Positions 1 through 15,840 of a stretch of DNA of 15,840 nucleotides are shown piece after piece. The notes under the pieces were generated by a model. It did not search any database. It was not told the DNA's origin and worked only from the letters and a program-made list of their open reading frames with translations. Source of the DNA: a virus. Taxonomy: Duplodnaviria; Heunggongvirae; Uroviricota; Caudoviricetes. The translations under genes and the position numbers were made by a program. Positions within the stretch are counted from its first letter, which is position 1. Every line of letters starts with the position of its first letter. The stretch is from positions 1 through 15,840 of IMG/VR virus record IMGVR_UViG_2737471850_000008; one strand, written 5' to 3'.

Positions 1-678
1 CATACTCCAGTATCGCAATGGTTTATATCTTCATTACCATTTATATTCAATCCGCCTGGCGCTAACATCAATGGTGTATCGCTCCAGATTGCCACATCTG
101 GTGTGTTCTGGACGTTAGTCTGGGAATTACGCCTATACCTTGCAATTCCATTTTTATATCTGATAATGAAAAACATCAAATATAAAGAAGCATTTGTTAT
201 TTTTTTAATGGGATGTGTTTTATTATTCAAGTATTTTATAAACAATGAACAACACCTGAGTTATATAATGTATTTCCTTGCAGGATTTCTTGTCGCTACA
301 ATCAAGAGCAACAAGCGCCCATCAGATATAATCTGCGCTTTATTATTATTCGCAGCCATATATTTTACTCGACATGCTTACAACACTACAACTCCGCTTT
401 ATATGTTTATTGTTTTCTACACAATAAAGTGCGGATGTGATTACTTTGGCTTACTTACATCCCTGCCTGTAACTATGCTGGGAACCTGCAGTTTCTCCCT
501 TTATTTAGTTCATGGGATAACTCAAACAGTATCTAAACATTATTTATATAGTGCAGGAAACTATGTTTGGCAGATTTGTGCAATTATTGCGGCAGGTATC
601 ATTGCGCCGGTTATGTACAAATATGTCGAAAGTCGCAGCATCATACATAAGCGTCCTCAACTTCAGATTGCAAAGTAG
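1..678 (+). CDS. Acyltransferase family 3 membrane protein (OafA/Oac-like polysaccharide O-acetyltransferase), C-terminal part; 5' end lies outside the window
   Basis: Frame 1 is open from base 1 to TAG at 676-678. Contains acyltransferase-3-type motifs FWTLVWELRLY (cf. WSLxVE..FY) and SFSLYLVHG (cf. S-x-x-YLxH) and several hydrophobic TM-like segments. Strongly AT-rich compared with the phage genes. Confidence 0.7.
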   Translation, partial: HTPVSQWFISSLPFIFNPPGANINGVSLQIATSGVFWTLVWELRLYLAIPFLYLIMKNIKYKEAFVIFLMGCVLLFKYFINNEQHLSYIMYFLAGFLVATIKSNKRPSDIICALLLFAAIYFTRHAYNTTTPLYMFIVFYTIKCGCDYFGLLTSLPVTMLGTCSFSLYLVHGITQTVSKHYLYSAGNYVWQICAIIAAGIIAPVMYKYVESRSIIHKRPQLQIAK

Positions 679-685
679 AACATTT

Positions 686-705
686 GCGCCCCTGAACAGG
701 GGCGC
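686..705. terminator. GC-rich hairpin (8-bp perfect stem GCGCCCCT/AGGGGCGC, loop GAAC) just downstream of the acyltransferase stop; candidate terminator
   Basis: Perfect inverted repeat read directly at 686-693 and 698-705. There is no immediate U-tract, so terminator function is uncertain. Confidence 0.4.
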
Positions 706-773
706 TATCCCACCACGCTGTTAAAATTTTGTTTCGTCTTACTTAGCATTTTTAAGTTGCCCATCGGAAAAAC

Positions 774-1038
774 GTCACAACCATCACGCCCCACAAAAAA
801 AACCATTAACCATCTGATTATCATGAATAAATGTTGTGATGGTAAAACCATCACAAAACGTAACGTAAACCGTCACACCCTATAAATTCAGCGAGTTATA
901 AAACAGAGTTGTGATGTTTTAAGGCCGTCACACTGTGATGCTCTTGTGATGCTCTTGTGATGGTTTTCAATATATGAATTTACTTATACATATCATATAG
1001 ATAAATGATATTTTTTAAATCTGTGATGTTTGTGACGG
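774..1038. repeat. Iteron-like cluster: 12 copies of heptamer TGTGA(T/C)G or its complement in 265 bp of AT-rich DNA, in both orientations
   Basis: Copies at 774, 782, 835, 848, 871, 910, 926, 934, 945, 956, 1022, 1031. Perfect palindrome TGTGATGG-TAAAA-CCATCACA at 835-855. Tandem 11-bp unit TGTGATGCTCT at 934-962 (one helical turn apart). Confidence 0.55.
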
Positions 1039-1213
1039 TTTTCCGATGCTCCCCCTAAATTTTTGAAAAAATTAGAAGTGGTCAGAAATCACCCTGATTT
1101 GTTGGTGGTTTTGTATATATCTCTGTTAGTGATTTGAGCATTGGTGCAGTACGTTAATGTAGGTATGGCTATAGTTCAGGCTGTGCAAAGTATTTCAGTT
1201 CCGCATCTCACGG

Positions 1214-1738
1214 TCATTCCGCGCCAGAACACATCAAATAAGGCCTTGTCACTTTCTCCCGCTTACGTGATCCCGCTGCGGCCGTTACGTTAAAAGTCAC
1301 GTACTGGCGAATTATCTGGATCAGCAACTGCGTGTTGTCCGCAATCTGGCTGTCTGTCACGCGAACCAGTATCACGTCCCAGTCAATCCCCGGCTGGCGT
1401 TCCTGCAGCTCAACGTACCCAATTCCCAGCCGTTCAAAGATGTTGATAAACCCCTCAACGGAACCGGCATCCCGCGCATTGACAAAGGCATATGCCACGC
1501 GCTTACGGAACAATGCCAGCGGTTCACCGTCAAAGCGGGTAATATCGCGGTCATACGCCAGCAGGTTCAGTAATGCCGGCGTACACGTCAGCGGATCGAA
1601 CTGATTCACTGGCCACGTAACCCAGCCGTAAACCTCAGTCCAGAACCGCCGCGCCGTTTTCAGCAGCTTCGCCGGCTCGCCTTTGTTCATCCAGGAAGGA
1701 AGCACCATCCCGGCCAGCTTTTTCAGGAACTCACTCAT
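1214..1738 (-). CDS. I: P2 gpI-like baseplate protein (tail protein I family)
   Basis: ATG at 1738 (MSEFLKK...) overlaps the stop of the upstream J-like gene by 8 nt. Segment TCTPALLNLLAYDRDITRFD resembles the recalled gpI motif (TCPANLLPWLAWAFSVDRWD). 174 aa versus about 176 aa for P2 gpI. Identification from memory, not a search. Confidence 0.6.
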   Translation of the reverse strand: MSEFLKKLAGMVLPSWMNKGEPAKLLKTARRFWTEVYGWVTWPVNQFDPLTCTPALLNLLAYDRDITRFDGEPLALFRKRVAYAFVNARDAGSVEGFINIFERLGIGYVELQERQPGIDWDVILVRVTDSQIADNTQLLIQIIRQYVTFNVTAAAGSRKREKVTRPYLMCSGAE

Positions 1739-2639
1739 TTTCAACAACAACCGCAAGCGATTTCAGGCGTGGAACACTCAGTTCGCTGGTGATATCACCC
1801 AGTGAAAAAGACAGTGATTCCGTCTGAGCAAATGTCCTGTGGATCTCCCGCCCCAGCTGAGAAAAGGAAAAACGCGAATATGGCCACGTCTTCCTGACGT
1901 CATAATCAGCATTCTCACGAAAAGCACAGCGGATCATGTTCTCCACCCCGTCCTTCAGGGTTTTCCTGTCCTCATCGCTGAAATTGGCCAGATTTTTGAC
2001 ATAAACTGTGACGGACAGATCATGAAGCGTTTCCGGCATGGGATAGCACTGCATATCATCACCGTGGCCGTGATGCCCCTGCGTGTTGATATAGTCATTG
2101 ACGGCATCCACGAACGGCGAAGAAGCCACCCCGCTGTCCAGCAACAGATACGCGTTGGCGGTACCGGGTCCCCTCGGCGCTTCATGTTCAAAGAAAATCC
2201 GGTCAATACTCAGCCCTGCAACGCCGGCAATCATCGACCGGTAAACGGCGTCAGTGTGGTAATTCCCCACCAGATTGAACTGATTGCGGCAGCGTTCGCG
2301 CAGCTCGTCATCACTTTCTTCATCCGCGCCCGGTACGGTCAGCCAGTTTTCTTCGCTGGCCACGTGGCTGATACCGTCAACGGCAACCGGCAGAATGCGG
2401 TAATATCCCGGCGCAAGGTTATATGCGCCCCCGGTGCCGGTGGCTTTTACCGGCAGTAATGCGCAGGCCGTACCGGAAGCGATCACTACATCCTCACTGG
2501 TGGCCAGCTCATACACGCGACCGTTAATGCGCTCTGTCTGGATACTGCCCCAGCCCGGTGTCCCGCTGTGCCGGGATGAACGCGATCTCGTCCATCTGGC
2601 TGTCAAATCCCTGCATTGCCCGTCTGGGCATGTTCGCAA
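1731..2639 (-). CDS. J: P2 gpJ-like baseplate protein; 5' end anomalous (TTG start in ORF track, Arg/Ser-rich first ~35 codons; possibly frameshifted or truncated)
   Basis: Central region ESDDELRERCRNQF resembles recalled P2 gpJ (ESDTDYRLRIQQAF). Size matches gpJ (302 aa). An ATG-initiated 35-codon ORF in another frame (ATG at 2631, MPRRAMQGFDSQMDEIAF...) overlaps the annotated N-terminus. Stop TGA at 1731-1733. Confidence 0.55.
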   Translation of the reverse strand: MRTCPDGQCRDLTARWTRSRSSRHSGTPGWGSIQTERINGRVYELATSEDVVIASGTACALLPVKATGTGGAYNLAPGYYRILPVAVDGISHVASEENWLTVPGADEESDDELRERCRNQFNLVGNYHTDAVYRSMIAGVAGLSIDRIFFEHEAPRGPGTANAYLLLDSGVASSPFVDAVNDYINTQGHHGHGDDMQCYPMPETLHDLSVTVYVKNLANFSDEDRKTLKDGVENMIRCAFRENADYDVRKTWPYSRFSFSQLGREIHRTFAQTESLSFSLGDITSELSVPRLKSLAVVVENE

Positions 2640-2669
2640 TGAGAAAATCGGTTAATGCCGTTAACTGGC

Positions 2670-3122
2670 TCATATCATGGCCACCGTAATGCGTTTCAGC
2701 CCTTTGATGCGGCGTACTGCCAGTGTGGACTCTGCAATCAGGCTGGAGCGGGTTTCGTCACTTTCCTGCCCCGGATGGCTCTCACGGCGACCAACAGACG
2801 CAAATTCGCCCATCAAATCAGCTTTGGCACGTGCATATACCGCTTTGCGATAACGGGCGCACAACAGATTTTCGCCGTCAATTTCCACGCCCGAAACGTC
2901 CGCCGCGCGCTCATGGCCAGCATTGCGATACCTTGCCGCCACACTGACCAGATCATCATTGATTTCGCCGGCTGCAGTCAGCAGTGCCTGGCGGATGGTG
3001 GCCGCATCAATATCGGCCGGAATGGTGCGCTGGGACTGAAAATCTTTCACGCTCAGGTCAGGCCAGAAGCCATCATTCGTCAGAGTGGCATCGTCAAAAT
3101 CAATTGAAGTTCCGCTGAACAT
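2670..3122 (-). CDS. L: P2 gpL-like head completion/stabilisation protein
   Basis: ATG at 3122 preceded by GGAG (SD); the track ORF starts at an upstream GTG (3161). C-terminal pattern ADVSGVEIDGENLLCARYRKAVYARAKADLMGEF resembles recalled gpL. It follows the M gene as in P2. Confidence 0.75.
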   Translation of the reverse strand: MFSGTSIDFDDATLTNDGFWPDLSVKDFQSQRTIPADIDAATIRQALLTAAGEINDDLVSVAARYRNAGHERAADVSGVEIDGENLLCARYRKAVYARAKADLMGEFASVGRRESHPGQESDETRSSLIAESTLAVRRIKGLKRITVAMI

Positions 3123-3215
3123 CCTGTTTCTCCGGAAAAAAGCGGGCTGGCCGGTTTCCACGGGCGATACGCTTATGCGATCCCCTCCACCGCGCCCGCT
3201 TTCGGGTCGGTAGTC

Positions 3216-3407
3216 TTACTCGCCGCGTTTTGCGGCCTGAATCTCACCTTCTTCAAACCACGCATCAGATGCGCGGCCGTCAGCAGTCTGATAGTGGATC
3301 AGATACTGATTGCAGCTGTTGGTGTACTCCGCACGGGCTTTGATATGCCCCTCTTCGCCGCTAATGGAAACTTCAACAACCTGGCCTAACTCATGCTTAA
3401 ACGACAT
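3216..3407 (-). CDS. Hypothetical 63-aa acidic protein inserted between small terminase and head completion genes
   Basis: ATG at 3407 lies 1 nt after the TGA of gene M (TGATATG coupling) and is preceded by GGGAG. No P2 gene occupies this position. No family recognised. Confidence 0.5.
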   Translation of the reverse strand: MSFKHELGQVVEVSISGEEGHIKARAEYTNSCNQYLIHYQTADGRASDAWFEEGEIQAAKRGE

Positions 3408-3408
3408 A

Positions 3409-4122
3409 TCAAACTCCCGTAGACTCTTTTTTCAGCGCCCGCAGACGCGCAGCAATACGCTGCAACATCGTGCCAACACCACATTTAGGGTCGAATCCCT
3501 TCGCCTGCTCCAGCAGTTCCTTAGCCCGGAGCAATACTTCCCTGTCTTCCGTTGCCGCTGCGCGTGGCTCTCCGTTTTCATCGCGTAGCAGGTGCAGACC
3601 GGCAAACTTCAGGTATTTGGCCTTAATGACCTCATACACATTCCAGTGCTGCGTCACGTTTTCCAGCGTACGGCCAAAATACGGCTCCACATCATGCCCC
3701 TGTACGGCTTCCGCTTCCGCCCAGGACAACACCGTATCCGCCACAAACACCGGGAACGTACTGCCGAACGCGGCCGGGGTTTCCTGCCCCCGCTGGATTG
3801 CCACATCCGCCCAGTCCAGCGCCTGGTCAAACTGGCCTGTATCAAACAGCCAGACGACACACCAGGCAAAAACAGGATTCTGTTGCACACTGTCACCTTC
3901 CAGCCAGGATTGCGCGGTTGGCATCCAGCGCGGTAACAGCACATCACGCTTAAATTCCATTCGCTCAGCGCGGCTTTCAATCGCTGCAGCTGCGGCGACA
4001 TCTTTCTCCAGCGCGACAATCTGAATATGCAGGCTGGTTTCCGTGTCCAGAGACTGCTGCTGTCGCAGTAACCGCTCCGCTTCAATTCGTGCGCTGTGGC
4101 GCTGTGCCGGTGACAGTTGCAT
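3409..4122 (-). CDS. M: P2 gpM-like terminase small (endonuclease) subunit
   Basis: 237 aa; ATG with AAGGGGGAT SD; positioned between N and L as in P2; sequence character consistent with the gpM family (from memory). Confidence 0.8.
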   Translation of the reverse strand: MQLSPAQRHSARIEAERLLRQQQSLDTETSLHIQIVALEKDVAAAAAIESRAERMEFKRDVLLPRWMPTAQSWLEGDSVQQNPVFAWCVVWLFDTGQFDQALDWADVAIQRGQETPAAFGSTFPVFVADTVLSWAEAEAVQGHDVEPYFGRTLENVTQHWNVYEVIKAKYLKFAGLHLLRDENGEPRAAATEDREVLLRAKELLEQAKGFDPKCGVGTMLQRIAARLRALKKESTGV

Positions 4123-4132
4123 TAAATCCCCC

Positions 4133-5161
4133 TTACTCGCCTGCCGGAGGCGCGACAGGTGCCCCGATAGCTACCGCACTTTCATCAAACGCGGCGTACA
4201 GTTCCGGATACTCAACCGCATAACCTTCGTTACGCAGGTATTTGTTTTCGTACTGTTTACGGTCTTCCACAAACTCCGCTTTACGCTGACGCGTGCCGCG
4301 CTGGGTGTAGATGTGCAGGTTTGGCAGTGTCGTAACAATCATGCGTTTGCCTGGCATAAACGGCGGTACGTAAGCCGTGCGGCCGGCGATGCTGTCAGAC
4401 AGCAGTTGCGCGGCGATCTTCTCCGTGGGTTTGTCTGCTTTCTGATACAGACGGAACGACTCCGCCGCGACCAGATCAGCGCCGACAAGAACCACCAGGC
4501 GTGGATCATTACGGTACTGTGCCGGGATTTTGGCGTTGATAAGGTCGGAGGCCATTGCATCCAGCGACACGTAATCGCCTTTCCCGTCACCGTCAAGCAC
4601 CACCGCATCAGTGATGATCTGCTGGCCGTCCTTCCACTCTTTGACGATCTGATGCCAGCCCTTGTTCACATCCTCGCCGTTCGGGTTGGTTTCCGCGTTC
4701 GTGGTCTCGGCCACTTTGGTACCGTTAAAGCCGATACGCAGCATATCCAGCGCAAACGCCTGATTGGTGAACTCCTGAACACGCTGGAAAAACTCGTTTT
4801 CATCGCCGGCGTTCGCCCAGACAGAAAGCAACTGCCAGGTGAGTGCGGCGCATGAGTCGGTCTCGACCAGACTGTAATCATTACCACTCACGCCCACTTT
4901 CTTACGGAAGCGGCCATCCAGTACACGCCCGGTATACAGGCCAGAGCTGCCAACCGGAACCACCTGCCCCTGCAGCTGATCGACATCGGCAACGGTGATC
5001 AGATTCAGGAAATCAGACTGCTCCATCAGCGCATTGCGCAGCTGGGTTTCTTTGGGGTCGGTGAGTGCAAACCAGCGTTCGCTGTCGGTCGCCCCGTAGG
5101 ATTCACGCAGCCCGGTGTGATACTGAAGCAGAAACTCACGGGCTTTCGCATTTAATTGCAT
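4133..5161 (-). CDS. N: P2 gpN-like major capsid protein
   Basis: 342 aa; ATG with AAGGA SD; C-terminal region (DPRLVVLVGADL...YVPPFMPGK...) resembles recalled P2 N (DPDLVVIVGRQLL...VPYFPAD); lies in O-N-M order. Confidence 0.85.
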   Translation of the reverse strand: MQLNAKAREFLLQYHTGLRESYGATDSERWFALTDPKETQLRNALMEQSDFLNLITVADVDQLQGQVVPVGSSGLYTGRVLDGRFRKKVGVSGNDYSLVETDSCAALTWQLLSVWANAGDENEFFQRVQEFTNQAFALDMLRIGFNGTKVAETTNAETNPNGEDVNKGWHQIVKEWKDGQQIITDAVVLDGDGKGDYVSLDAMASDLINAKIPAQYRNDPRLVVLVGADLVAAESFRLYQKADKPTEKIAAQLLSDSIAGRTAYVPPFMPGKRMIVTTLPNLHIYTQRGTRQRKAEFVEDRKQYENKYLRNEGYAVEYPELYAAFDESAVAIGAPVAPPAGE

Positions 5162-5195
5162 ATTCTTTTTCCTTAAAGAAAAGTAGTGTTATCCC

Positions 5196-6035
5196 TTACA
5201 GGAAATTGAAGCCTTTTTTGCCCTTGCTGAATTTCTTGTCCGGCAGTTGAGTAACTTTGTTATTCAGCTTGCTGAAGTTTTTCACCAGCTCCGGCAGGTT
5301 CCCCACCAGACGCGCAAAATCTTCGGTGTCCACTACTTCCTTCACGGTGTCCACATCGTCCTGCACATCAGATACCGCTTCTTCCGCCTCACCCAGACGG
5401 GTTTCAATAGCAGATACGCGCTTATCAATGGCATCCAGCGCTTCAGCCAGCGCCTGTAAGGCATCAGACTGTGAAGGTTCCTGCTCCGGGGTCTGCTCCG
5501 GTTCTTCGATACTGAAAAAATGGCGCCAGCCCTTTTTCGCTGTCTTTGACATTCCCTTTTCCTTTTTAAATTCCCTGACTTCATCAAACGCCAGCGGCTT
5601 GTATGGTCCGATGCGTTTTCCCCTGGTGCGGCTGAAACGTAACCGTGTGGTGCTTACCCCGGCCGGACTGTCAGTAATGGCCAGTCCCTCAAGATAGGTT
5701 TTCCCGGTATTTCTGAAATTGCCGTCCGGTGTAAACTCCGGTGATAAAAATAAAAGCTGACCGTCTGCATTTGCCTGTAGCAATGAAATCGCCGGACAGA
5801 GGCGGGCATATAAACGAAGAATACCTTCATCATCCCGCTCGGCTTTTACTTCCAGCACCTCCCCCATATTCCCGAAATTACGGGAATGTTCCGGCCATAA
5901 CAGCGCGGTATACAAAGAGGGGTCATATAATTCAGCGGCATCAAGCAACCATTGTTCTTCAATAAATCGCTTATCAACCGTTTCACCCGCAGTGGCGATA
6001 CAAATCCAGTTTGTTGCCAGTTGTGAACCTGACAT
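5196..6035 (-). CDS. O: P2 gpO-like capsid scaffolding protein/protease
   Basis: ATG at 6035 (MSGSQLATNW...) preceded by GGAGG; the track ORF extends to 6095. N-terminal WICIATAGETVDKRFI...GEVLEVKAE resembles recalled gpO (FFRIGVEGDTCDGRVI...GDVAELKAE). Acidic C-terminal half typical of scaffolds. Confidence 0.8.
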   Translation of the reverse strand: MSGSQLATNWICIATAGETVDKRFIEEQWLLDAAELYDPSLYTALLWPEHSRNFGNMGEVLEVKAERDDEGILRLYARLCPAISLLQANADGQLLFLSPEFTPDGNFRNTGKTYLEGLAITDSPAGVSTTRLRFSRTRGKRIGPYKPLAFDEVREFKKEKGMSKTAKKGWRHFFSIEEPEQTPEQEPSQSDALQALAEALDAIDKRVSAIETRLGEAEEAVSDVQDDVDTVKEVVDTEDFARLVGNLPELVKNFSKLNNKVTQLPDKKFSKGKKGFNFL

Positions 6036-6163
6036 ATTGCCTCCGTTCATGCTGCGGTTTTCAGTATCGCCAATAAAATTAACCGCCGCATTCACTTCAT
6101 TTCGGATATAGGCTATTAGCCGAACACATCAGAAATAAAGCGGGATTTAATATACAAACGCCC
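6036..6163. promoter_or_regulatory. Divergent intergenic region between O and P; expected location of late promoters
   Basis: Position between divergently transcribed head operons, as for P2 PO/PP. No canonical TGT-N12-ACA Ogr box was found by eye, so promoter elements are not defined. Confidence 0.35.
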
Positions 6164-7960
6164 GTGCATAATGTGTGCATGGCTAAATATTCAGAAGAAT
6201 TAAAAGGCGTTGCGCGGGCGCTTTATTTAAAACGCTATACCCCGCAGGAAATTGCCAGCGAACTTAATCTGCCTAACAGACGCATTGTCTATTACTGGGC
6301 GGAGAAATATTGCTGGGCGGAATTACTCAGTCATGAATCCACCGAAGATGCATTAAACCGTCGCATTCAGTCACTGACATTACGTGAAGGGAAATCGGAG
6401 CTGGAGCTGCGGGAGCTGGACAGTCTCGTTTCTCACCTGGTGAAACTACGTGCACAGCACAATAAGCATCAGGAAAAGCTGGCAGAAATTAAACACAGTG
6501 AAAATGATGCGCCGGCGCGTCAGTCCGGTGGCGACGAAAAGCCCCGGAAACGTGGCAAGTACAAAAAGAACGACATCAGCGGACTGACACAGGAAGATTT
6601 TGACCGGTTCGCGCTGGAGCACCTTTTCGGTTACCAGAAACACCTTCGCGCTAATCTTCATCAGCAAATCAGGAACATCCTGAAAAGCCGCCAGATTGGT
6701 GCAACCTGGTATTTCTCAATAGAAGCCTTTGAGAATGCGGTCATGACAGGCGATCCGCAAATCTTCCTGTCCGCATCAAAGGCTCAGGCGGAAGTATTCC
6801 GCAGCTATATCGTCAACATTGCGGAGCAGTATTTCGGCGTGGAGCTGACGGGAAACCCCATCCGCCTCTCCAACGGCGCGGAGATGCGATTCCTGTCCAC
6901 CAACAAGAACACCGCCCAGTCATACAGCGGCCATCTGTACTGCGATGAATATTTCTGGGTACCCAACTTTGCAAAATTAAACGAAGTGGCCAGCGCGATG
7001 GCCACACACGACAAATGGCGAACCACCTACTTTTCCACCCCCAGCAGCAAAACGCACCAGGCGTACCCGTTCTGGACTGGTGAAGAATGGAAGCGCGGTG
7101 ACAAAAAACGCGCGCGCGTACAATTTCCCACGGAGAAGGAGCTGCGCGACGGTGGACGGTTATGTCCTGATGGGCAGTGGCGCTACATCATCACAATGGA
7201 AGACGCGATCGCAGGCGGGTTTAATCTCGCCAGCATCGGGAAGCTGCGCAACCGCTACAACCGCGACACTTTCAACATGCTGTATATGTGCGTGTTCGTG
7301 GACAGCAAGGACAGCGTATTTTCGTTCTCTCACGTAGAACGCTGCTGTGTAGATCCGGATATCTGGGAGGATCATGACGAAAACCTGCCCCGGCCGTTCG
7401 GCAACCGTGAAGTGTGGGCGGGTTATGACCCGGCTCGCAGCGGAGACACCTCCACCTTCGTGATCATCGCGCCGCCGATAGTGGCCGGCGAAAAATTTCG
7501 GGTACTGCGTGTATTCCACTGGCAGGGGATGAACTGGAAGTGGCAGGCGGCACAGATTAAGAAGCTGTTTGGCCAGTACAACATGACCTACATCGGCATT
7601 GATATCACTGGACTGGGTAGCGGTGTCTTTGAAGACGTTCAGCACTTTGCCATGCGTCAGGCAGTGGCGATCCGCTACGGCGTCGAGACCAAAAATCGTC
7701 TGGTGATGAAGATGATCGACGTTATCGAAGACGGCCGCGTGGAATGGGATAAGGAGAAGACCGAAATCGCCGCCAGCTTTATGACCATCCGCCGTACGTC
7801 CACGGCCAGCGGCAACGCAATGACTTTCGTCGCCGATCGCACAGCAGAAACAGGACACGCAGACAGTTTCTGGGCTATCGCCCATGCCATTGACAACGAG
7901 CCATTAAACTTTGAAAACCAGCGAAAATCACGCTGGGGTAACTTAGGGAAAGCAGCATGA
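6164..7960 (+). CDS. P: P2 gpP-like terminase large (ATPase) subunit
   Basis: About 593-598 aa; the track start is GTG at 6164 and the first ATG is at 6179 (MAKYSEELKG). Size and position match P2 P. Stop overlaps the Q start (ATGA at 7957-7960). Confidence 0.85.
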   Translation: MHNVCMAKYSEELKGVARALYLKRYTPQEIASELNLPNRRIVYYWAEKYCWAELLSHESTEDALNRRIQSLTLREGKSELELRELDSLVSHLVKLRAQHNKHQEKLAEIKHSENDAPARQSGGDEKPRKRGKYKKNDISGLTQEDFDRFALEHLFGYQKHLRANLHQQIRNILKSRQIGATWYFSIEAFENAVMTGDPQIFLSASKAQAEVFRSYIVNIAEQYFGVELTGNPIRLSNGAEMRFLSTNKNTAQSYSGHLYCDEYFWVPNFAKLNEVASAMATHDKWRTTYFSTPSSKTHQAYPFWTGEEWKRGDKKRARVQFPTEKELRDGGRLCPDGQWRYIITMEDAIAGGFNLASIGKLRNRYNRDTFNMLYMCVFVDSKDSVFSFSHVERCCVDPDIWEDHDENLPRPFGNREVWAGYDPARSGDTSTFVIIAPPIVAGEKFRVLRVFHWQGMNWKWQAAQIKKLFGQYNMTYIGIDITGLGSGVFEDVQHFAMRQAVAIRYGVETKNRLVMKMIDVIEDGRVEWDKEKTEIAASFMTIRRTSTASGNAMTFVADRTAETGHADSFWAIAHAIDNEPLNFENQRKSRWGNLGKAA

Positions 7961-8976
7961 AAAAACGGAAATACAGGGAACGCCGCACCGCCAGCAAGCC
8001 GCGCCATATGAGCCTTATTACCCTGGGTAAACCGGAACCCATTCTGACGACCGGCACAAACTACACAGACGTCTGGTATGACAATGAAGCGGAACACTGG
8101 ACGCTCCCGATTGACCGGCTGGCGCTGGCGCAACTGGTGAACCTGAACGCGCAGCACGGCGGTGTGCTGTATGCCCGTCGCAATATGGTGACGGCAAACT
8201 ATAAAGACGGCGGACTGACGCATGAACAGCTTGGTGCAGCCGTGTTCGACTGGCTGACCTTCGGTGATGTGGCCATTCTGAAAGTGCGTAACGGCTGGGG
8301 GGATGTGGTGGCACTGTACCCGCTGCCGGCACTCTATACCCGCCAGCGTAAGACCGGGGAGTTTGTGGTACTGCAGCAGGGTGAACCGATGATTTATCCG
8401 CCTGAAGATATTATTTTTCTCAGGCAGTACGATCCGCAACAGGCGATTTATGGTCTGCCGGATTATATCAGCGGTATCCATTCTGCCCTGCTTAACGGTG
8501 AGGCAACAATTTTTCGTCGGCGTTACTACCATAACGGCGGACACACAGGTGGCATGATCTACTGTAACGACCCAAATATGACTGATGAAGTGGAAGAAGA
8601 AATTATTCAGAAGCTGGAGCAGTCAAAGGGGATCGGGAACTTCAGCACCATGTTTGTGAACATCCCCAAAGGCGATCCGGACGGCATCAAATTTATCCCG
8701 ATTGGGGATATCAGCGCCAAAGATGAGTTTCAGAACATCAAGAGCATCAGCGCCCAGGACGTACTGACCGCGCATCGATTCCCGGCAGGACTGGCGGGGA
8801 TTATCCCGACGAACGGCGCAGTAATGGGAGATGTTGAGAAAGCGTCCAAAACCTACCGCAAAGCAGAAATTTTGCCCATTCAGCGCATGTTTACCGCCGC
8901 AGTGGAACAGGAAAGTGATGTACCGCCCCACCTGTACCTTAATTTCCTGAAAGACAGTGAGCTGGAAGGTGATTAA
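7957..8976 (+). CDS. Q: P2 gpQ-like portal protein
   Basis: 339 aa versus about 344 aa for P2 Q; translationally coupled to P; family identification from memory. Confidence 0.85.
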   Translation: MKKRKYRERRTASKPRHMSLITLGKPEPILTTGTNYTDVWYDNEAEHWTLPIDRLALAQLVNLNAQHGGVLYARRNMVTANYKDGGLTHEQLGAAVFDWLTFGDVAILKVRNGWGDVVALYPLPALYTRQRKTGEFVVLQQGEPMIYPPEDIIFLRQYDPQQAIYGLPDYISGIHSALLNGEATIFRRRYYHNGGHTGGMIYCNDPNMTDEVEEEIIQKLEQSKGIGNFSTMFVNIPKGDPDGIKFIPIGDISAKDEFQNIKSISAQDVLTAHRFPAGLAGIIPTNGAVMGDVEKASKTYRKAEILPIQRMFTAAVEQESDVPPHLYLNFLKDSELEGD

Positions 8977-9029
8977 TGTTCGCAAAAAGGCTAAAATATC
9001 ATCGTTTTCCAACTTCCGGAGCGATGGAT

Positions 9030-9305
9030 ATGCGGGTAATGAAGGTTTACTGTCCGGTATGTGAGGCAAGGGCTGTTATCAAAAAAACAGCCCGAAAACA
9101 CAAGGAACTGTCGGATTTATATTGCGCGTGTACCGATGTTGAATGTGGTCACACTTTTGTGATGAATATGACATTCTCACATACCATCAGCCCCAGCGCC
9201 AAATCCAGCGATGCGTTGATCGCCACTATCTGTAACAGCCTTGATATCCAGCAAAAGCAGCTGATGTTAAAGTTTCTGAGTCAGGACGGCACTGCTGCCG
9301 CATAG
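9030..9305 (+). CDS. ogr: Ogr/Delta-family zinc-finger late transcription activator, with a C-terminal extension relative to P2 Ogr
   Basis: CPVC...(22 aa)...CACTDVEC four-cysteine arrangement, as in Ogr/Delta. GGAG 9 nt upstream of the ATG at 9030; alternative starts at 9024 and 9042; the track ORF begins at 8976. Confidence 0.75.
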   Translation: MRVMKVYCPVCEARAVIKKTARKHKELSDLYCACTDVECGHTFVMNMTFSHTISPSAKSSDALIATICNSLDIQQKQLMLKFLSQDGTAAA

Positions 9306-9306
9306 A

Positions 9307-9337
9307 AAAAAGCACCGCTACCGGTGCTTTTATTTTC
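9307..9337 (+). terminator. Rho-independent terminator after ogr
   Basis: Stem AGCACCG / CGGTGCT (9311-9317 and 9322-9328), loop CTAC, followed by TTTTATTTT; A-run upstream. Confidence 0.75.
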
Positions 9338-9383
9338 TGAGATGTAACAGATTCCCATCTATCAACGTCGATGAATGACCAAG

Positions 9384-9444
9384 TGATTAATAGTCCCCCC
9401 CTCCTAAACATGATATTATCTTTCCAAATTTTGGGAGGCATCTT
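9384..9444 (+). promoter_or_regulatory. Putative promoter and RBS of the glycosyltransferase moron, containing a C7 homopolymer
   Basis: TATTAT (9414-9419) as candidate -10; TTAATA/TGATTA about 21-24 bp upstream as candidate -35; C7 run at 9395-9401 lies between them; strong SD GGGAGG at 9432-9437. Confidence 0.3.
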
Positions 9445-10164
9445 ATGTTAATAGTCTCAGTTCTTAAATGTAGTAAAGAGTTTACCCCTAAACACGCCCA
9501 ATGGCTTCATCGTCAGTTCAAAGATATTCCATCTATATGTTTAACCGATGCAGATAATATTCCTGGAGTTAACACAACCCCTTTGCTTTATAACTGGCCG
9601 GGATGGTGGTCTAAAATTGAACTATTTAATCCTAATCACCCAGTCCTTGGAGACCAAGATTTACTCTATTTTGACGTAGATGTTGTGGTCACGGGAGATA
9701 TTCATATTTTCGAAGGTGCGAAGAAATTTACAATGCTTCGGGAGTTTAACCATGCCTCAAGAGTAAACTCATCAATAATGATGATTCCGGCGTCGATTAA
9801 AAAGACGATTTGGGAACAATTCATTATTGATCCTGAGAAAATTATGCGCAATTGTCAGACTGAAGACAAATGGGGTGATCAGGGATTTCTCGGTAGCATC
9901 ATAAAACCAGCCCTATGGCAGGATATCATTCCTGGCTCAATTGTTAGTTATAAATGTGACATCGCCACCCCCTCGATGATTGGCTTCAATGCAAATTTAG
10001 CCTCTGAGGCTGCGACAGGGAAAGTCCCTGATAATGTGGCGGTTGTTTGCTTTCATGGCAGTCCACGCCCCTGGCGTACTGGTTTTGATTGGGTTCCTTC
10101 GTTTTCCCTGCGGGATACTCTGTACGGTAAATTAAAGAACTTTAAAATAAGAATGAAGCAATAA
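9445..10164 (+). CDS. GT8-family-like (glycogenin/LgtC/RfaJ-type, DxD) glycosyltransferase; AT-rich moron
   Basis: Motifs in GT8 order and spacing: DxD (LLYFDVDVVV), NSS (cf. FNSGV), WGDQGFL (cf. GGDQGILN), CFHGSPRPW (cf. HFxGxxKPW). AT-rich compared with the flanking phage genes. Strong SD and ATG. Confidence 0.6.
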   Translation: MLIVSVLKCSKEFTPKHAQWLHRQFKDIPSICLTDADNIPGVNTTPLLYNWPGWWSKIELFNPNHPVLGDQDLLYFDVDVVVTGDIHIFEGAKKFTMLREFNHASRVNSSIMMIPASIKKTIWEQFIIDPEKIMRNCQTEDKWGDQGFLGSIIKPALWQDIIPGSIVSYKCDIATPSMIGFNANLASEAATGKVPDNVAVVCFHGSPRPWRTGFDWVPSFSLRDTLYGKLKNFKIRMKQ

Positions 10165-10201
10165 AGATAACGCCCCTATTGCTTCAATGTTCGCTCCTTC
10201 C

Positions 10202-10219
10202 CCTAACAATAAAGTTAGG
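10202..10219. terminator. Hairpin CCTAAC-AATAAA-GTTAGG between the convergent glycosyltransferase and primase-helicase genes; possible bidirectional terminator
   Basis: 6-bp perfect inverted repeat read directly; AT-rich stem, so weak. Confidence 0.3.
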
Positions 10220-10232
10220 CACTAGTGAACCG

Positions 10233-12890
10233 TTACTTTTCCCGGCCAAATATCCAGCAGCGGAATGTTTCCGGCATCCGTTGCATATCCCCTTTACCAC
10301 GATTATGGCGCTCACTTACCGCGCTGCGCGTGGTGCTTTGTCTGATAAACCGGCGCTCATTGCCGTTTTTAAGCAGCTTTTTAATTTCCGTTAACGTGAA
10401 CGGAATACGCTGCCGGTGTGCTGCGGCGACCTCTTCCATGTGATTGAAATTAACCGCGATTTCATTTTCATCTGATGAATGATTGATGCCATAAGGTGCC
10501 AGTTCATCCAAGTAATCAAACAGCTCCCAGAACTCCTGCACCAGAGGATGATCCTTTTTAAGTGCCTGACAACGTTCAACGGCCAGCGCGGTGATGGCTT
10601 CACGCGTTTTTTCTATACGTTCAACCGGCACCGGTACAACAAGTGCAAGCGCCTCCAGCAAGCCCACAAGCTGCGCGTGATTCTTTGCAATACGGATATG
10701 GCGAATACTGCTATTAGACTCCAGCTCATTCCTAGCTCGCTCGTACCCCCTGCCGAACGTCTGCATGATTTCTTTTTCGCGCATGGTGGCCAGTAATGTG
10801 AATCCGGATACCTGGCTAACGGGGAGTTGTTCAAGTCGTTCTGCAGCGTGGCGCGTCTGAATGGACTGGCCGCGCTTGTCGGTATAGATGTGGATGATAC
10901 GCTCCAGAAACGCCTTGCTGCCGTCTGTGTCGGCATTTTGCGCTATCACAATACTTCCCCTGAACGGCGGCTCATACGTCTCGTTATTGTTCGATTTGAT
11001 ACCCACGGCGCGGGAGGCACGACCGTTATACAGTGATTTCAGCTCGTCCCAGTCAAAAGCGCGTTGCTTGGCGTTATCGGTAGTACGGTCGCCCTCAATC
11101 AGCACAACCGGCAGATTACCGACCTGGGCGAAGTTACGGCCACGCGCGGCGGCGGTAGATTTAGATGGGTCAAACCCTTCGTATTCCTCACGGCCGGCGA
11201 GCTTCCAGAGAAATTCTATCAGCGTGGATTTACCTGTCCCCGGCTCGCCCACGATTTCCAGAAACGGAAATGACTTGTCACGCTCGCGGATTTGTTCGGC
11301 AAACAGCGACCCCAGCCAGAACGCCAGCGCCACATACCCTTTTTCACCAAATGCCGTCCAGATATCGTCTACCCAACCCGTAGTAAACTCGTTCAGCTTC
11401 GGATTCAGATCCAGCGCCGGCGTGAGGCTCAGGCTCTTAACGCTGGCACTGTTGATTTCGAAGTAATCCTCGTCGTTCATCTCATACAGCCGGCCATCGC
11501 AAACGGCCACGCGGTTAAACAACCAGGCGGCATAATCCTTGTTATAGCCGATGAAATTCTGCGTCTTTACCTCTTTGATTTCAGGGAGGCGCATCTGGAT
11601 GAACTTATCCAGCTGTTTGGTGCTGCCTGTGTACACCGCCCCTTTGGCGATGTGCAGCAGACGCTTTTTGAACTCGGCGGAGCTGGTGAGCTGATTAGCC
11701 GTGAAAGTATCTTTCACGGCTGGCCGGTTAGGCATACTGACTTTCACGTAATACCAGGACTCGTCCGTAGGTTCAGACCGCTGAAAGTAAAGCGGCGTCA
11801 GCCAGCAGTTAGCTATTTCGGTCACGCCGCCTGACTCTTTAACCGCCCGTTCTTTGGCCTCCCACTCCATCACCACTTCGGTACCGGTATTGGTGATGCG
11901 CTCATAGGCTCGCATATACCTGTCCAGATCCAGCTCAAACCAGTACATGCGGGAGTTATGCTCAAAGTAGAACGAGTGCCACTCGTTATGCTGATGCATG
12001 AGCAGCGCTTTCTCAGTCGGGCTTTTTGCCAGAAGGAGATCGCCATAGTAGCGATAATTTTTAATGTCCGACTTACTGAACCGGTTACGTAACAACAGGT
12101 CATTCCAGTCCAGCGATGCCGATGATTTCACCGGCTGCGCGGCACGAGTTTTCCATCCTGCAGCATCACTACGGGCAGCGAACGCCAGTGTGTGCTTTGT
12201 GCCGGCTTTATCGCCGTCAAACGCCCATACAAGACGTGGACGTGGTTTTTCACCCAGTTCTTTGGCCAGCGTATCCAGTGCGGCCAGCGGATAGTTGTTA
12301 CTGCTCAGTGTGGCAACTGCAGGTAACCCTACCTGGCACAGACTCAGCGCGTTGAAGATTCCCTCAGTGATCCAGATTTCGTTCACTTCCTGCAGGTTGA
12401 TAAAGGGAGGAACCCACCAGTGACCGACATAGCTTCCCCTGATGTTGGCTTTCTGCTTACCGAAGCGCTGCGGCTGGTCAATGATGCGCTCCCATGTTGC
12501 ACCGCATGACAGCGAAAATCTGACCGTTGCCGACCCCATGCCATCTTTCACGAATGCACCCTGGGTAAAACAGCCTTTTAATGGCTCAGTCTCCAGCCCT
12601 CTGGCCTCGCGCAGATACGCCTCAGCTACTGCATGGGGGTTATCTTCTGTGGTCTGGTAACGTTTTGACCAGTCTTCAAAGATATCCGGATACAGCTCTT
12701 TCACGACAATCTGATGTGCGCAGTTATTTTCACGGCCACATTTCAGAATCCAGGGCTTTTCTATGCTGGTAAATAATTCGCGCTTACGACAGGCAGGGCA
12801 AACGCCCTGCTGCAAATACTTATCCCGCTCTTTAAATTCAAAGTCCCGAACAAGACGGCGCACAACGTCCTGTTGTATCGTTTCGTTCAT
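10233..12890 (-). CDS. Primase-helicase of the P4 alpha type (zinc-binding N-terminus, Toprim primase, P-loop NTPase)
   Basis: ATG at 12890 (MNETIQQ); the track ORF starts at TTG 12926. CPACRK...(16 aa)...CGRENNC zinc motif; Toprim-like ITEG and FDGDKAG; Walker A GEPGTGKS and Walker B-like VVLIEGD. Confidence 0.8.
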   Translation of the reverse strand: MNETIQQDVVRRLVRDFEFKERDKYLQQGVCPACRKRELFTSIEKPWILKCGRENNCAHQIVVKELYPDIFEDWSKRYQTTEDNPHAVAEAYLREARGLETEPLKGCFTQGAFVKDGMGSATVRFSLSCGATWERIIDQPQRFGKQKANIRGSYVGHWWVPPFINLQEVNEIWITEGIFNALSLCQVGLPAVATLSSNNYPLAALDTLAKELGEKPRPRLVWAFDGDKAGTKHTLAFAARSDAAGWKTRAAQPVKSSASLDWNDLLLRNRFSKSDIKNYRYYGDLLLAKSPTEKALLMHQHNEWHSFYFEHNSRMYWFELDLDRYMRAYERITNTGTEVVMEWEAKERAVKESGGVTEIANCWLTPLYFQRSEPTDESWYYVKVSMPNRPAVKDTFTANQLTSSAEFKKRLLHIAKGAVYTGSTKQLDKFIQMRLPEIKEVKTQNFIGYNKDYAAWLFNRVAVCDGRLYEMNDEDYFEINSASVKSLSLTPALDLNPKLNEFTTGWVDDIWTAFGEKGYVALAFWLGSLFAEQIRERDKSFPFLEIVGEPGTGKSTLIEFLWKLAGREEYEGFDPSKSTAAARGRNFAQVGNLPVVLIEGDRTTDNAKQRAFDWDELKSLYNGRASRAVGIKSNNNETYEPPFRGSIVIAQNADTDGSKAFLERIIHIYTDKRGQSIQTRHAAERLEQLPVSQVSGFTLLATMREKEIMQTFGRGYERARNELESNSSIRHIRIAKNHAQLVGLLEALALVVPVPVERIEKTREAITALAVERCQALKKDHPLVQEFWELFDYLDELAPYGINHSSDENEIAVNFNHMEEVAAAHRQRIPFTLTEIKKLLKNGNERRFIRQSTTRSAVSERHNRGKGDMQRMPETFRCWIFGREK

Positions 12891-12929
12891 AAATAATCCA
12901 GATGTGAAATAATGGGTAAAAGGCAAAAA

Positions 12930-13148
12930 CTATATTCTGTACTGCTTGTTATATCGCTCATGTGTCATTAGTTCCCAGCTTCTGCCCTTATCCTTACTCA
13001 GTAATCGCCAGTGATAAGAAACATGAACAGAGAAATAATGTTTTGGCTTAATAACCTGATATACCTTTTTGCCGTTGTAATATTCTGTCAGCACTGAAAA
13101 TGCCTTGTGAATGACACTTTCACTTGCATGAGAGGTCACTGTAAGCAT
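12930..13148 (-). CDS. Hypothetical 72-aa protein
   Basis: ORF between the exonuclease and primase genes with ATG 2 nt after the exonuclease stop; weak SD; AT-rich; no recognised motifs. Could instead be non-coding regulatory DNA. Confidence 0.35.
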   Translation of the reverse strand: MLTVTSHASESVIHKAFSVLTEYYNGKKVYQVIKPKHYFSVHVSYHWRLLSKDKGRSWELMTHERYNKQYRI

Positions 13149-13150
13149 CG

Positions 13151-13720
13151 TTATTTCACACTGGCTATTTTTACAAGATACATCCAGACATAAGAAACAA
13201 CTTTAGCCTGATGAATGGCATCATATAAAGCGTGATGTTTAACACCATCAAACTTAATAATATTACGAACATTCAGCCCAAGTGTTTTTGACAGTTCAAC
13301 AACCGTTCTTACATCACGGTCATTCCAGTAGTACCAAAGTGGATCGGCAAACCCGCATTTCTCTGATGCATTACGTAAAATAACATTGTCGAACGCTGCA
13401 CTATTCCCCCATACCTGTACTTTAGATGGGTCAGAATGCTCAGTAATAAAAGCTTCCAGATTAGCTAACGTCAGAGGCAAGTCCAGACAATCGTCATTAA
13501 GCAGCTCGCTACGCGCTTCGGCATCCTGACGCATCCACCATAATACGGTTTCTGACCCCATAGTGAGACCGTGGCCTACACAGCTGCCCAGGCTGACACG
13601 TTGATAAAACTGTTCACCCATTTCGCCAGTTTCAGGGTCAAAGAATACAGCACCGATAGAAGCAATCGCAGAAGTCGGTTTATTATCCATTGTTTCAAGG
13701 TCAATCATTAAATGTTTCAT
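13151..13720 (-). CDS. DEDDh-family (DnaQ/RNase T-like) 3'-5' exonuclease
   Basis: Exo I MIDLETMD (D-x-E), Exo II WGNSAAFD, Exo III HHALYDAIH (H-x4-D). ATG with AAGGAA SD. AT-rich. Confidence 0.8.
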   Translation of the reverse strand: MKHLMIDLETMDNKPTSAIASIGAVFFDPETGEMGEQFYQRVSLGSCVGHGLTMGSETVLWWMRQDAEARSELLNDDCLDLPLTLANLEAFITEHSDPSKVQVWGNSAAFDNVILRNASEKCGFADPLWYYWNDRDVRTVVELSKTLGLNVRNIIKFDGVKHHALYDAIHQAKVVSYVWMYLVKIASVK

Positions 13721-13729
13721 ATCGGTTCC

Positions 13730-14065
13730 TTAACGTTGGGAAGCTGCAACAGATTTAAGATGCGAGTTATTACTTTTTAACGCTGTGGTAGCCAGCGACA
13801 TAAGACCGGAAATGTTATTTTCAGTTGGTATATTTCCGCCAAATACCATAAGCGTGATTTTGTGCAGTTCTTCAAAATCATCACTATCATTATTAAAGCG
13901 AGCAGTGGAGGTTATACCCTCAAGGCATTTTGCAAGCTGAATGTTTAATTCCATTAACTGCAAGCCATCGCTATGTACAGAGAATGTTTCTTTATCAATG
14001 GTTTTTGCCTGAGCGTGATAGTTTTGCAACAGACTACGAATCAGCGTGGCATATTTAGTCTTCAT
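13730..14065 (-). CDS. Hypothetical protein (about 111 aa) in the early operon
   Basis: ATG at 14065 with GGGGAT SD (track start is TTG at 14077); 26 bp downstream of cox; AT-rich; no recognised domain. Confidence 0.5.
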   Translation of the reverse strand: MKTKYATLIRSLLQNYHAQAKTIDKETFSVHSDGLQLMELNIQLAKCLEGITSTARFNNDSDDFEELHKITLMVFGGNIPTENNISGLMSLATTALKSNNSHLKSVAASQR

Positions 14066-14091
14066 GATAATCCCCAATAATATTTAGTTTA

Positions 14092-14373
14092 CTAACGAGC
14101 ACTTTTATCTTTCGTGAATAAACGGTTCTTCCAGTCATGCCATTCAGGCGGGGCAATTTGAGCCAAATGAATGGCATAAGCATCCCATTCCCCCCGATGG
14201 ATATAGATTTCCCCACCTTTTTTTGATGGATTTAGAGGGTCTTTCATGCGGATTACCGGCAGTTTTCCAGCCGTGGCCATTTTGCGAATTGCAGCAGGCG
14301 TTTTGCCTATATATTCGGCAAAAAGCTCAGGGGTCACCAACTCTGAAAGCGCCTTTTCTGCTGGTTCCTTCAT
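14092..14373 (-). CDS. cox: P2 Cox-like excisionase / transcriptional regulator
   Basis: 93 aa; segment ELFAEYIGKTPAAIRKMATAGKLPVIRMKDP resembles recalled P2 Cox (QEFAKLIGKSTGAVRRMIDKGKLPVIDMTDP). Divergent from C. SD AAGGAT. Confidence 0.8.
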   Translation of the reverse strand: MKEPAEKALSELVTPELFAEYIGKTPAAIRKMATAGKLPVIRMKDPLNPSKKGGEIYIHRGEWDAYAIHLAQIAPPEWHDWKNRLFTKDKSAR

Positions 14374-14481
14374 CTGTGGTATCCTTCGTTAGTTTGGGTT
14401 CCTAGGGCGCTTTAAGTCGTTCTAGGGTTCTTTTGTCAAGGTTCTTTTGTAAGAACCAACAATAGTTGCGATACAAGAACC
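14374..14481. promoter_or_regulatory. cox-C switch region with candidate operator repeats (face-to-face Pe/Pc promoters expected by analogy with P2)
   Basis: Direct repeats TTC(C)TAGGG at 14399-14407 and 14420-14427, about 21 bp apart. Tandem GGTTCTTTTGT at 14426-14436 and 14440-14450. Inverted GGTTCTT...AAGAACC at 14440-14457, and another AAGAACC at 14475-14481. Confidence 0.6.
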
Positions 14482-14781
14482 ATGTCAAGAAATTATGCGG
14501 AGAAACTCCGGCAGATCCGGAAAGCTGAAGGGTTAACTCAAAAAGATTTTTCAGAGCTTACTGGGGTAGCTCTTGGAACAATAAAAAAGTACGAAACTGG
14601 CCATCAGCCAGCTCGTGCAGAAGTCTTAGAAAGTGTTATAGAGGTACATATGTTTGAAAAATATACACTCTGGTTAATGACAGATAAGACGGCACCAATT
14701 GCGGGGCAGGTGTCCCCGTCTCTCTCCCCTGATGGGCAAGACAACATAACATCATCCCGTTCCACCCGGAAAATTGGCTAA
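14482..14781 (+). CDS. C: P2 C-like immunity repressor
   Basis: 99 aa (same as P2 C). LTQKDFSELTGVALGTIKKYETG helix-turn-helix and KYTLWLMTDKTAPIAGQVSP closely resemble recalled P2 C (KYTLWFMTNQIAPESGQIAP). Confidence 0.85.
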   Translation: MSRNYAEKLRQIRKAEGLTQKDFSELTGVALGTIKKYETGHQPARAEVLESVIEVHMFEKYTLWLMTDKTAPIAGQVSPSLSPDGQDNITSSRSTRKIG

Positions 14782-14847
14782 ACATCTGGTTTTTCTATGC
14801 GTTAGCGCAAAATTTACATAATGATTCATACATCGGAGGGCTTCGCT

Positions 14848-15840
14848 ATGTCGATTAAGAAGCTTGATGATGGTCGTTTTGAAGTGGACGTTAGACCGCG
14901 CGGAACCTCAGGAAGAAGGATTCGACGCAAATTTGACAGAAAGGCGGAAGCACAGGCATACGAGCGGTATGTACTGACAAACTTTCACGATAAAGAATGG
15001 CAGGATAAACCCGCAGACAGGAGGCTTGTATCCGAGTTAATTTCTTTATGGTGGAGCTACCATGGAAAGAATCACAACTATGGTGACTCATATAAAAAGC
15101 GTTTGGAAAAAATCAACCGAGAAATGGCGGAACCCAGAGTGTACGAGCTTACCCGCAACTTTCTGATGAAATATCGTGCAGAACGACTTCATAGTGGAGT
15201 ATCTGCTGGCACGGTAAACAGGGATTTCTGTTCCATGTCCAGCATGTTCAGTTTGCTGATAGATATGGAAGAATTTCATCACGAAAACCCGTTTCGCGCC
15301 GTGAAGAAGTTACGTCTGGAAAACACAGAAATGTCATTTCTGTCCGAAGAAGAGATCCACCATTTGCTGAATGCCCTTACAGGGGATGATCGCAGAGTTG
15401 TCGTTCTTTGCCTGAATACAGGAGCACGATGGGGTGAAGCCAGTAATCTTAAAGCTGAAAACGTGATAAGTAACCGTGTGACCTTTGTTAAGACCAAAAC
15501 CGGCCCAGCTCGTACTGTTCCGATATCGAAGGAAATCGCGGACTACATCCTTACACGCAAATCGGGGAAATTGTTCGATACCAACTATGAGCGAGTTCGC
15601 GATGTTCTTCGTAAGATTAAGCCAGACTTGCCGAAAGGTCAGGCACTGCATGTTTTACGCCATACCTTCGCAACACATTTCATGATCAACGGCGGGAATA
15701 TCATCACGCTACAGCGTATTTTGGGTCATACAACAATCGAGCAAACAATGACATATGCTCACTTCGCCCCAGATTATCTGACTGATGCCATACGATTTAA
15801 CCCTATGCGTGGGAGTGTCCACATAATGTCCACCGACTAG
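14848..15840 (+). CDS. int: P2-type tyrosine integrase
   Basis: ATG at 14848 with GGAGGG SD (track ORF starts at 14821). MSIKKLDDGRFEVDVRPRGTSGRRIRRKFDRK closely resembles recalled P2 Int (MAIKKLDDGRYEVDIRP...RIRRKFDKK). C-terminal HVLRHTFA...H...Y catalytic-type residues. Stop TAG at the window end. Confidence 0.9.
   Translation: MSIKKLDDGRFEVDVRPRGTSGRRIRRKFDRKAEAQAYERYVLTNFHDKEWQDKPADRRLVSELISLWWSYHGKNHNYGDSYKKRLEKINREMAEPRVYELTRNFLMKYRAERLHSGVSAGTVNRDFCSMSSMFSLLIDMEEFHHENPFRAVKKLRLENTEMSFLSEEEIHHLLNALTGDDRRVVVLCLNTGARWGEASNLKAENVISNRVTFVKTKTGPARTVPISKEIADYILTRKSGKLFDTNYERVRDVLRKIKPDLPKGQALHVLRHTFATHFMINGGNIITLQRILGHTTIEQTMTYAHFAPDYLTDAIRFNPMRGSVHIMSTD

Follow-up and report, generated by a model that had tools for sequence, protein, structure and literature searches.

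Does the acyltransferase gene that fills the first 678 bases of this stretch of DNA belong to the phage beside it, to the host chromosome or to a neighbouring island, and what might its product modify? The stretch, here called the window, comprises 15,840 bp (positions 1 to 15,840 of IMG/VR virus record IMGVR_UViG_2737471850_000008). Below we establish that the gene is phage cargo, neither a host gene nor part of a separate island, and that a temperate P2-family phage (Peduoviridae, Evevirus-like) carries it as an accessory (‘moron’) gene. Its product, already annotated in public records as acyltransferase or O-acetyltransferase, is an uncharacterised member of a well-known class, the phage-borne AT3 O-acetyltransferases. 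The locus is probably an ordinary example of temperate phages altering the host surface, in which the gene survives in a decayed P2-family prophage of E. coli. The features of the window on which the argument draws are as follows.

1–678, + strand: 3′ part of an AT3-only membrane O-acyltransferase gene (ORF translation, Pfam, PHROG)
679–1303, no strand: AT-rich spacer without coding sequence, separating the acyltransferase from the phage late genes (composition)
686–705, + strand: GC-rich hairpin with an 8-bp stem and a 4-nt loop, starting 8 nt past the stop codon (fold −17.1 kcal/mol)
773–1037, no strand: 12 GTGAYG/CRTCAC repeats facing either way, among them 11-bp tandem units at 933–965
1214–2639, − strand: remnants of a gpI-like tail protein (1214–1756) and baseplate J (1731–2639) (Pfam Tail_P2_I and Baseplate_J; mapping to locus L001)
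1300–1303, no strand: junction of deletion 1, 5.65 kb, with a 4-nt overlap (mapping to L001 and L001 annotation)
2543–2544, no strand: junction of deletion 2, 6.86 kb, with a 2-nt overlap (mapping to L001 and annotation)
14821–15840, + strand: tyrosine integrase at the opposite prophage end (Pfam Int_N and Phage_integrase)

The acyltransferase and its family

The reading frame (frame 1), open at the 5′ end of the window, extends from base 1 as far as a TAG at 676–678, its 225 codons corresponding to residues 143–367 plus the stop of a 367-aa acyltransferase. The full-length sequence and its neighbours were recovered from genomes identical over window positions 1–700, with the N-terminal 142 codons assumed to be intact in the source strain; in these genomes the gene lies between raiA/attL and the phage, and the stretch 426–630 bp upstream of the window holds the start of the gene, its R-X10-H and RXXR motifs and the attL core. 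A longer annotated start (395 aa, its ATG within the upstream hairpin) was dropped for the MKYIF start (367 aa), because homology to phage ESSI2_ev239 and to Citrobacter copies begins ~70 nt upstream of MKYIF and most homologues measure 366–377 aa (range 349–405 aa).

A prior reading of the letters alone (the sequence-only reading) had assigned the fragment to the family-3 acyltransferases, and the profiles bear this out: the window fragment by itself matches PF01757 (Acyl_transf_3) with 47.2 bits against a curated gathering cut-off of 31 (E 2e-12, profile positions 90–322 of 326), and the full 367-aa protein with 101.6 bits against the same cut-off (E 5.9e-29, positions 2–322 of 326). The full protein also matches PHROG 3333, ‘O-acetyltransferase’ (E 2e-40). 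AT3 is the one Pfam domain in the 367 residues, its match being followed by 7 residues and a short tail, and a Pfam scan of the full protein found no SGNH domain, which makes this an AT3-only protein of the Oac type and not of the two-domain OafA/OafB type. Of the earlier label ‘OafA/Oac type’, the Oac half is thus retained and the OafA half given up.

The family motifs of AT3 proteins are R/K-X10-H in the first transmembrane helix and RXXR in the first cytoplasmic loop (PMC9558356). Alignment with Sf6 Oac and Sf101 OacB reveals invariant R41-X10-H52 and R116-F-M-R119, both upstream of the window, and also keeps P122, W179-T180-x-x-x-E184, Y310 and E352; W179, T180, E184, Y310 and E352 fall inside the window part. 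AT3 proteins are polytopic inner-membrane proteins with about 10 transmembrane helices, and a Kyte-Doolittle scan, as a crude guide only, marks six strongly hydrophobic 19-residue segments in this one. A PDB sequence search with the acyltransferase returned no relative, no NCBIfam equivalog model matched at its cut-off (the sole match, SucT, scored 15.4 bits against 1275), and the PADLOC defence models gave no match. Among phage-borne orthologues, dN/dS is 0.04–0.20 for pairs with unsaturated synonymous sites, and the family is under purifying selection across phages.

Integration site and cargo status

The window is placed between raiA and pheL of E. coli, always in the chromosome. A 22-bp att core, AACGC[G/A]CCTTCGGGCGCGTTTT, coincides with the raiA terminator and occurs as a single copy in K-12, between raiA and pheL, while lysogens hold two cores, one between raiA and the acyltransferase and the other between int and pheL. 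In locus L002, where window positions 12683–15840 correspond to 23432–26590, these cores are at 14371–14392 (after raiA) and 26674–26695 (int/pheL); in window coordinates, the attL core precedes base 1 by ~610–630 bp, and the attR core begins 84 bp after base 15840. Joining the sequences that flank the two lysogen cores gives the K-12 sequence. Repeats of the CGTCCACA type stand on both sides of the att core, as expected of integrase arm sites, and repeats akin to them surround the attP region of phage ev239. A search of the window and L002, allowing up to 3 mismatches, turned up no third core separating the acyltransferase from the phage genes. Two cores enclosing both gene and phage, with no third between them, make the acyltransferase part of the integrated unit, at the far end from int.

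In K-12, this att site, the raiA intrinsic terminator, also forms the 3′ end of an annotated sRNA, RaiZ. The attL copy restores the terminator hairpin, with the T-run after it shortened from TTTTTT to TTTTATTT, and the attR copy has a G-to-A change in the stem.

Comparison with strains that lack the element bears on whether this could instead be a host core gene of the raiA–pheL region. The gene does lie directly downstream of raiA and in the same direction of transcription. Against this, it is carried by 22 of 5426 complete E. coli genomes and missing from the other 5404, and K-12 and the swine strain 210221272 both have an empty site, a 103-bp raiA–pheL spacer with a single att core. Strain 210221272 has a wzy 99.8% identical to that of carrier AP023286, with identical flanking proteins, and its raiA–pheL interval is empty. 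These empty sites refute a host origin, the probability of which we regard as practically nil.

Base composition raises the other possibility, that the gene is part of a separate genomic island adjoining the prophage. GC content is 0.35 over window positions 1–600 (0.364 for the whole acyltransferase gene) and 0.33–0.41 in the repeat region at 700–1200, against 0.52–0.60 in the phage genes at 1200–5000, and the AT-rich stretch runs on through the repeat region to about 1130. The sequence-only reading was correct that the gene resembles the repeat region in composition and contrasts with the P2-like genes, and both this contrast (36% against 52–60% in the late genes) and the 1 kb of non-coding repeat region separating the gene from the late genes would fit an island. 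Low GC (36–37%) is retained in the Citrobacter and Enterobacter copies; being kept across genera, the composition is a property of the gene family and not the marker of a particular donor. The island reading is contradicted by the two att cores that enclose gene and phage together, by the occurrence of the acyltransferase in an isolated phage genome and its linkage to the same phage type elsewhere in Citrobacter, and by the lack of any integrase or mobility gene that would belong to such an island. Moreover, a site with the gene and without phage DNA was found in none of the 5426 genomes, even where only 16–21% of the window was matched. With no third att copy, and with the gene accompanying this type of phage at other att sites and in other species, a separate island is highly improbable.

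The other option entertained at the outset, phage cargo, is what the locus displays: the gene is inside the att-bounded insertion, missing from empty sites, and present in an isolated phage beside int/attP. In the circular phage genome, the acyltransferase would adjoin attP, with int on the other side of attP, and would converge on the end of the tail operon; integration into the raiA terminator would then bring it to the raiA-proximal end of the prophage.

Prophage architecture and internal deletions

Mapped onto the genomes that match it best, the entire window falls into three pieces that span ~28.4 kb of P2-family prophage, with window positions 1–1303 equal to L001 20001–21303, 1300–2544 to L001 26957–28201 and 2543–8781 to L001 35062–41300. 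Deletion 1 removed three hypothetical late genes, the tail-fibre assembly and tail-fibre genes and part of the gpI-like tail protein, and deletion 2 the rest of baseplate J, a DUF2590 gene, the tape measure, chaperones, lysis genes, tube and sheath. The acyltransferase is on the + strand and the neighbouring tail and baseplate remnants are on the − strand, so the gene indeed converges on the element, as had been read from the window. It was further supposed that the cargo occupies the place where tail-fibre genes normally sit. The intact prophage shows otherwise: tail-fibre genes lie there between the acyltransferase and the baseplate genes, and they are missing from the window because of the two internal deletions.

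The window's prophage is unable to make virions. The visible part of the acyltransferase reading frame is nonetheless undisrupted in this defective element, which raises the question of whether, in this lineage, the gene is simply carried along neutrally by a prophage in decay, intact by chance and with no effect on its present hosts. Prophages are partly deleted in 10 of the 22 carriers, with patterns that vary between carriers, the window's own copy has two deletions, and the O-type differs from carrier to carrier; furthermore, copies within E. coli are 99.9–100% identical, so that selection within the lineage is not measurable. Yet all 22 carriers, whose match to window positions 1–1300 is at least 99.2% identical, keep the gene at 99.9–100% identity over positions 1–700, none with a pseudogene annotation, and it is retained even where just 16–21% of the window's phage DNA is left. 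Together with the purifying selection seen across phages, this complete retention makes a neutral passenger improbable.

The same gene in other phages

The temperate phage ESSI2_ev239 (NC_049392.1, Peduoviridae, Evevirus) encodes a 96.5% identical protein, gp35 ‘O-acetyltransferase’, at 27190–28293, with int (25751–26734) immediately ahead of it and the end of the tail operon following. It is one of four ESSI2-like temperate phages from a study whose temperate phages were isolated from infant faecal viromes, and the word ‘acetyltransferase’ is absent from the main text of the paper on these isolates (PMC6969025). The window phage is of the same type: positions 1–13205 match ev239 at ~91% overall, the gene and spacer (1–1136) correspond in one block to 27616–28751 of ev239 at 95.0% identity (blastn; ev239 locus L004), and the order int, attP, acyltransferase, repeat region, tail operon end is shared. 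The two differ in that ev239 is complete and plaque-forming, whereas the window copy is a deleted prophage, and in that the integrase/attP module of ev239 is unlike that of the window phage; the raiA-terminator core is absent from ev239. Because these modules differ and the homology starts only ~70 nt upstream of the MKYIF start, the cassette is common to phages of different integration specificities. As a direct template for the attP of the window phage, ev239 was ruled out by its different attP.

Only one of the four ESSI2-like isolates carries the acyltransferase, and in a related E. coli prophage near mntR, a DUF6338 gene and hypotheticals occupy the same slot. Homologues, all in the convergent position, are found in an Evevirus-like prophage of Citrobacter amalonaticus at another locus (80% identical), in a different P2-type prophage of Citrobacter (77%, after the tail-fibre assembly gene) and in Enterobacter prophages (52%, convergent to a tailspike gene and beside int); the 52–77% identical Enterobacter and Citrobacter loci are L016, L017 7001–8104 and L018 7001–8104. 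Judging from these arrangements, the cassette moves between unrelated phage types while keeping its position beside receptor-binding genes. Around the Kosakonia (70%) and Salmonella (52%) homologues, no prophage was visible.

Characterised relatives

The best characterised match is OacB of Shigella phage Sf101 (27% identity over 307 residues, E 1e-20, BLASTP), and Sf101 has the same tail-oac-int arrangement as found here. OacB is a distant relative, and its 3/4-O-acetylation of the S. flexneri backbone rhamnose is not transferable to the O5-family, O81-family and fucose-type O-antigens of E. coli. Oac (OacA) of Shigella phage Sf6 is likewise AT3-only and has the R-X10-H, RXXR and WTLxxE motifs in common with our protein; its gene, as here, is flanked by int/attP and by the tail(spike) gene, on which it converges. 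It differs in its 28% identity over the N-terminal half only (E 1e-9, BLASTP), and Sf6 is a P22-like podovirus whereas the phage here is a P2-family myovirus. Identity to the characterised O-antigen acetylases is thus only 27–28%.

Sf6 Oac acetylates the O-antigen rhamnose and blocks superinfection, and an oac homologue of PhiV10, a temperate phage of E. coli O157:H7, modifies the host O-antigen and renders the host immune to the phage (PMC9558356). Like the acyltransferase here, the PhiV10 enzyme is an O-acetyltransferase encoded by a temperate coliphage, though of a different phage family; it was not among the tblastn matches at E ≤ 1e-3, which makes it at best a very distant relative. In Salmonella, OafA / OafB (GtrC family II) acetylate the O-antigen and affect phage sensitivity (PMC7448272, PMC9558356). 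They share the AT3 domain and the same TM1 and RXXR motifs, and they differ in being two-domain AT3–SGNH proteins, the protein here consisting of AT3 alone.

Proposed function and target

The sections above show which family the gene belongs to, that its motifs are conserved, that it is cargo, where it sits and that it is under purifying selection; the donor, acceptor and phenotype we infer from relatives and from position. AT3 proteins are proposed to acetylate sugars outside the cytoplasm with acetyl groups that they carry over the membrane from a donor on the cytoplasmic side (PMC9558356, PMC7448272, PMC9833829). On this model, the acyltransferase, as an AT3-only and probably integral inner-membrane protein, would draw the acetyl group from cytoplasmic acetyl-CoA, translocate it through the inner membrane and transfer it to a sugar residue of an extracytoplasmic glycan, both transfer steps being performed by the single AT3 domain, as is thought for AT3-only proteins. 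The most likely acceptor would be the LPS O-antigen, which is favoured because of the relatives and because of the position beside tail-fibre and tailspike genes; O-acetylation would then change a surface epitope and hinder the adsorption of glycan-using phages. By analogy with characterised AT3 proteins, we consider it fairly likely that the gene encodes a phage-borne, AT3-only, Oac-type acetyltransferase that O-acetylates the LPS O-antigen.

AT3 proteins act on many glycans (PMC9558356), and with acceptors this diverse the substrate is not readable from sequence. The O-antigen loci of the carriers add to this point. Three carriers were examined, and they have three O-antigen clusters, of a fucose type (Wzx/Wzy with gmd-fcl-gmm-manC-manB), the O5 family and the O81 family, located as follows.

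L012 13213–25724: O-antigen cluster of a carrier
L013 1–8733: O-antigen cluster of a carrier
L014 11017–20235: O-antigen cluster of a carrier

With at least three O-antigen clusters among carriers, the target is uncertain, and a single O-unit-specific target can't explain retention in all of them. The variety reflects either O-antigen switching within the lineage or spread of the phage across O-types, and possible readings of it are a shared target, an enzyme active in some hosts only, or a passenger gene. A tie to one O-serotype was considered and rejected: the wzy of carrier AP023286 occurs in 4 genomes only, none of them another carrier, and the two other carriers are of the O5 and O81 families.

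The cargo might alternatively acylate another glycan, such as the LPS core, enterobacterial common antigen, colanic acid or capsule, periplasmic glucans or peptidoglycan. Each of these classes is a documented target of AT3 proteins (PMC9558356), and at least three unrelated O-antigen clusters would fit a target common to all carriers. However, the nearest characterised relatives found are phage O-antigen acetylases, none of the NCBIfam equivalog models of named enzymes reached its cut-off, and the recurring adjacency to tail-fibre or tailspike genes matches known O-antigen-modifying morons; peptidoglycan enzymes, like those of the Salmonella OafA type, have an SGNH domain, which is absent here. 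Taken together, these observations leave another glycan as the less probable, minority reading. A rather unlikely variant, slightly less probable again, is that the enzyme acts on a sugar or glycan common to varied O-types, be it a shared O-unit residue, the LPS core or enterobacterial common antigen. If true, this would amount to a broad, serotype-independent surface change, portable by phages across O-types and even genera, and would account for near-identical copies that have persisted in hosts of the O5 family, the O81 family and the fucose type even as the prophage around them decayed.

Returning to O-antigen acetylation as the favoured reading, an active enzyme would alter a surface glycan of E. 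coli in livestock- and human-associated carriers, changing antigenicity and phage sensitivity, with bearing on serotyping and on the choice of phages in therapy. Serotype-converting phages are mostly P22-like or lambdoid, and this locus would add a P2-family (Evevirus) example to them. Conceptually nothing is new, as the gene class, the placement between attP and tail genes and the likely role are established in other phages.

Flanking signals and the repeat region

Bases 679–720 are non-coding and contain the hairpin at 686–705, which is more stable than expected (z −2.74; none of 200 shuffled sequences was equally stable). A terminator scan did not report it, and with no T-run behind it the hairpin is not a canonical intrinsic terminator. 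Upstream of the gene, each locus has a hairpin of its own just past the arm repeats, at a shared position and not in a conserved sequence. A TGnTAAnAT element stands ~30 nt before the ATG and is conserved in an alignment of four loci, and a candidate promoter element, TGTTAACAT, precedes the MKYIF start. The upstream hairpin and the TGnTAAnAT element look like insulation from read-through combined with a putative extended −10 promoter, from which the gene could be expressed; insulation by a hairpin and an own promoter are the usual moron layout. A consensus sigma-70 scan around the gene found 8 promoters where 6.8 were expected from shuffled sequence, a number not above background. Dam-dependent phase variation is seen for oafB, and a Dam/OxyR-type switch was discarded as a candidate for the acyltransferase, the ~180 nt upstream of the gene containing no GATC.

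The repeat cluster at 773–1037 concentrates 12 of the 36 motif matches of the window within 265 bp, and TGTGAYGG is observed 7 times against 1.0 expected. The cluster is found in ev239 (95% conserved) and in L008, and is absent from L005, a related prophage whose replication endonuclease is of the P2 A type. It is also absent from the Citrobacter locus L007, which has the acyltransferase; a gene without repeats shows that the two are separable, and the idea that the repeats belong to the acyltransferase cassette was given up. The repeats are not part of the upstream control region of the acyltransferase, and they may instead be an iteron or origin array for the 897-aa toprim primase encoded at window positions 10233–12926.

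A second AT-rich, accessory-looking reading frame lies between ogr and the primase (9445–10164, + strand, 239 aa, GC about 0.38–0.40). It had no Pfam match; it does match PHROG 1962, ‘glycosyltransferase’ of the moron category (E 6e-81), and is ~40% identical to P1 PmgQ and P7 HdmD. At its position, ev239 has other small genes.
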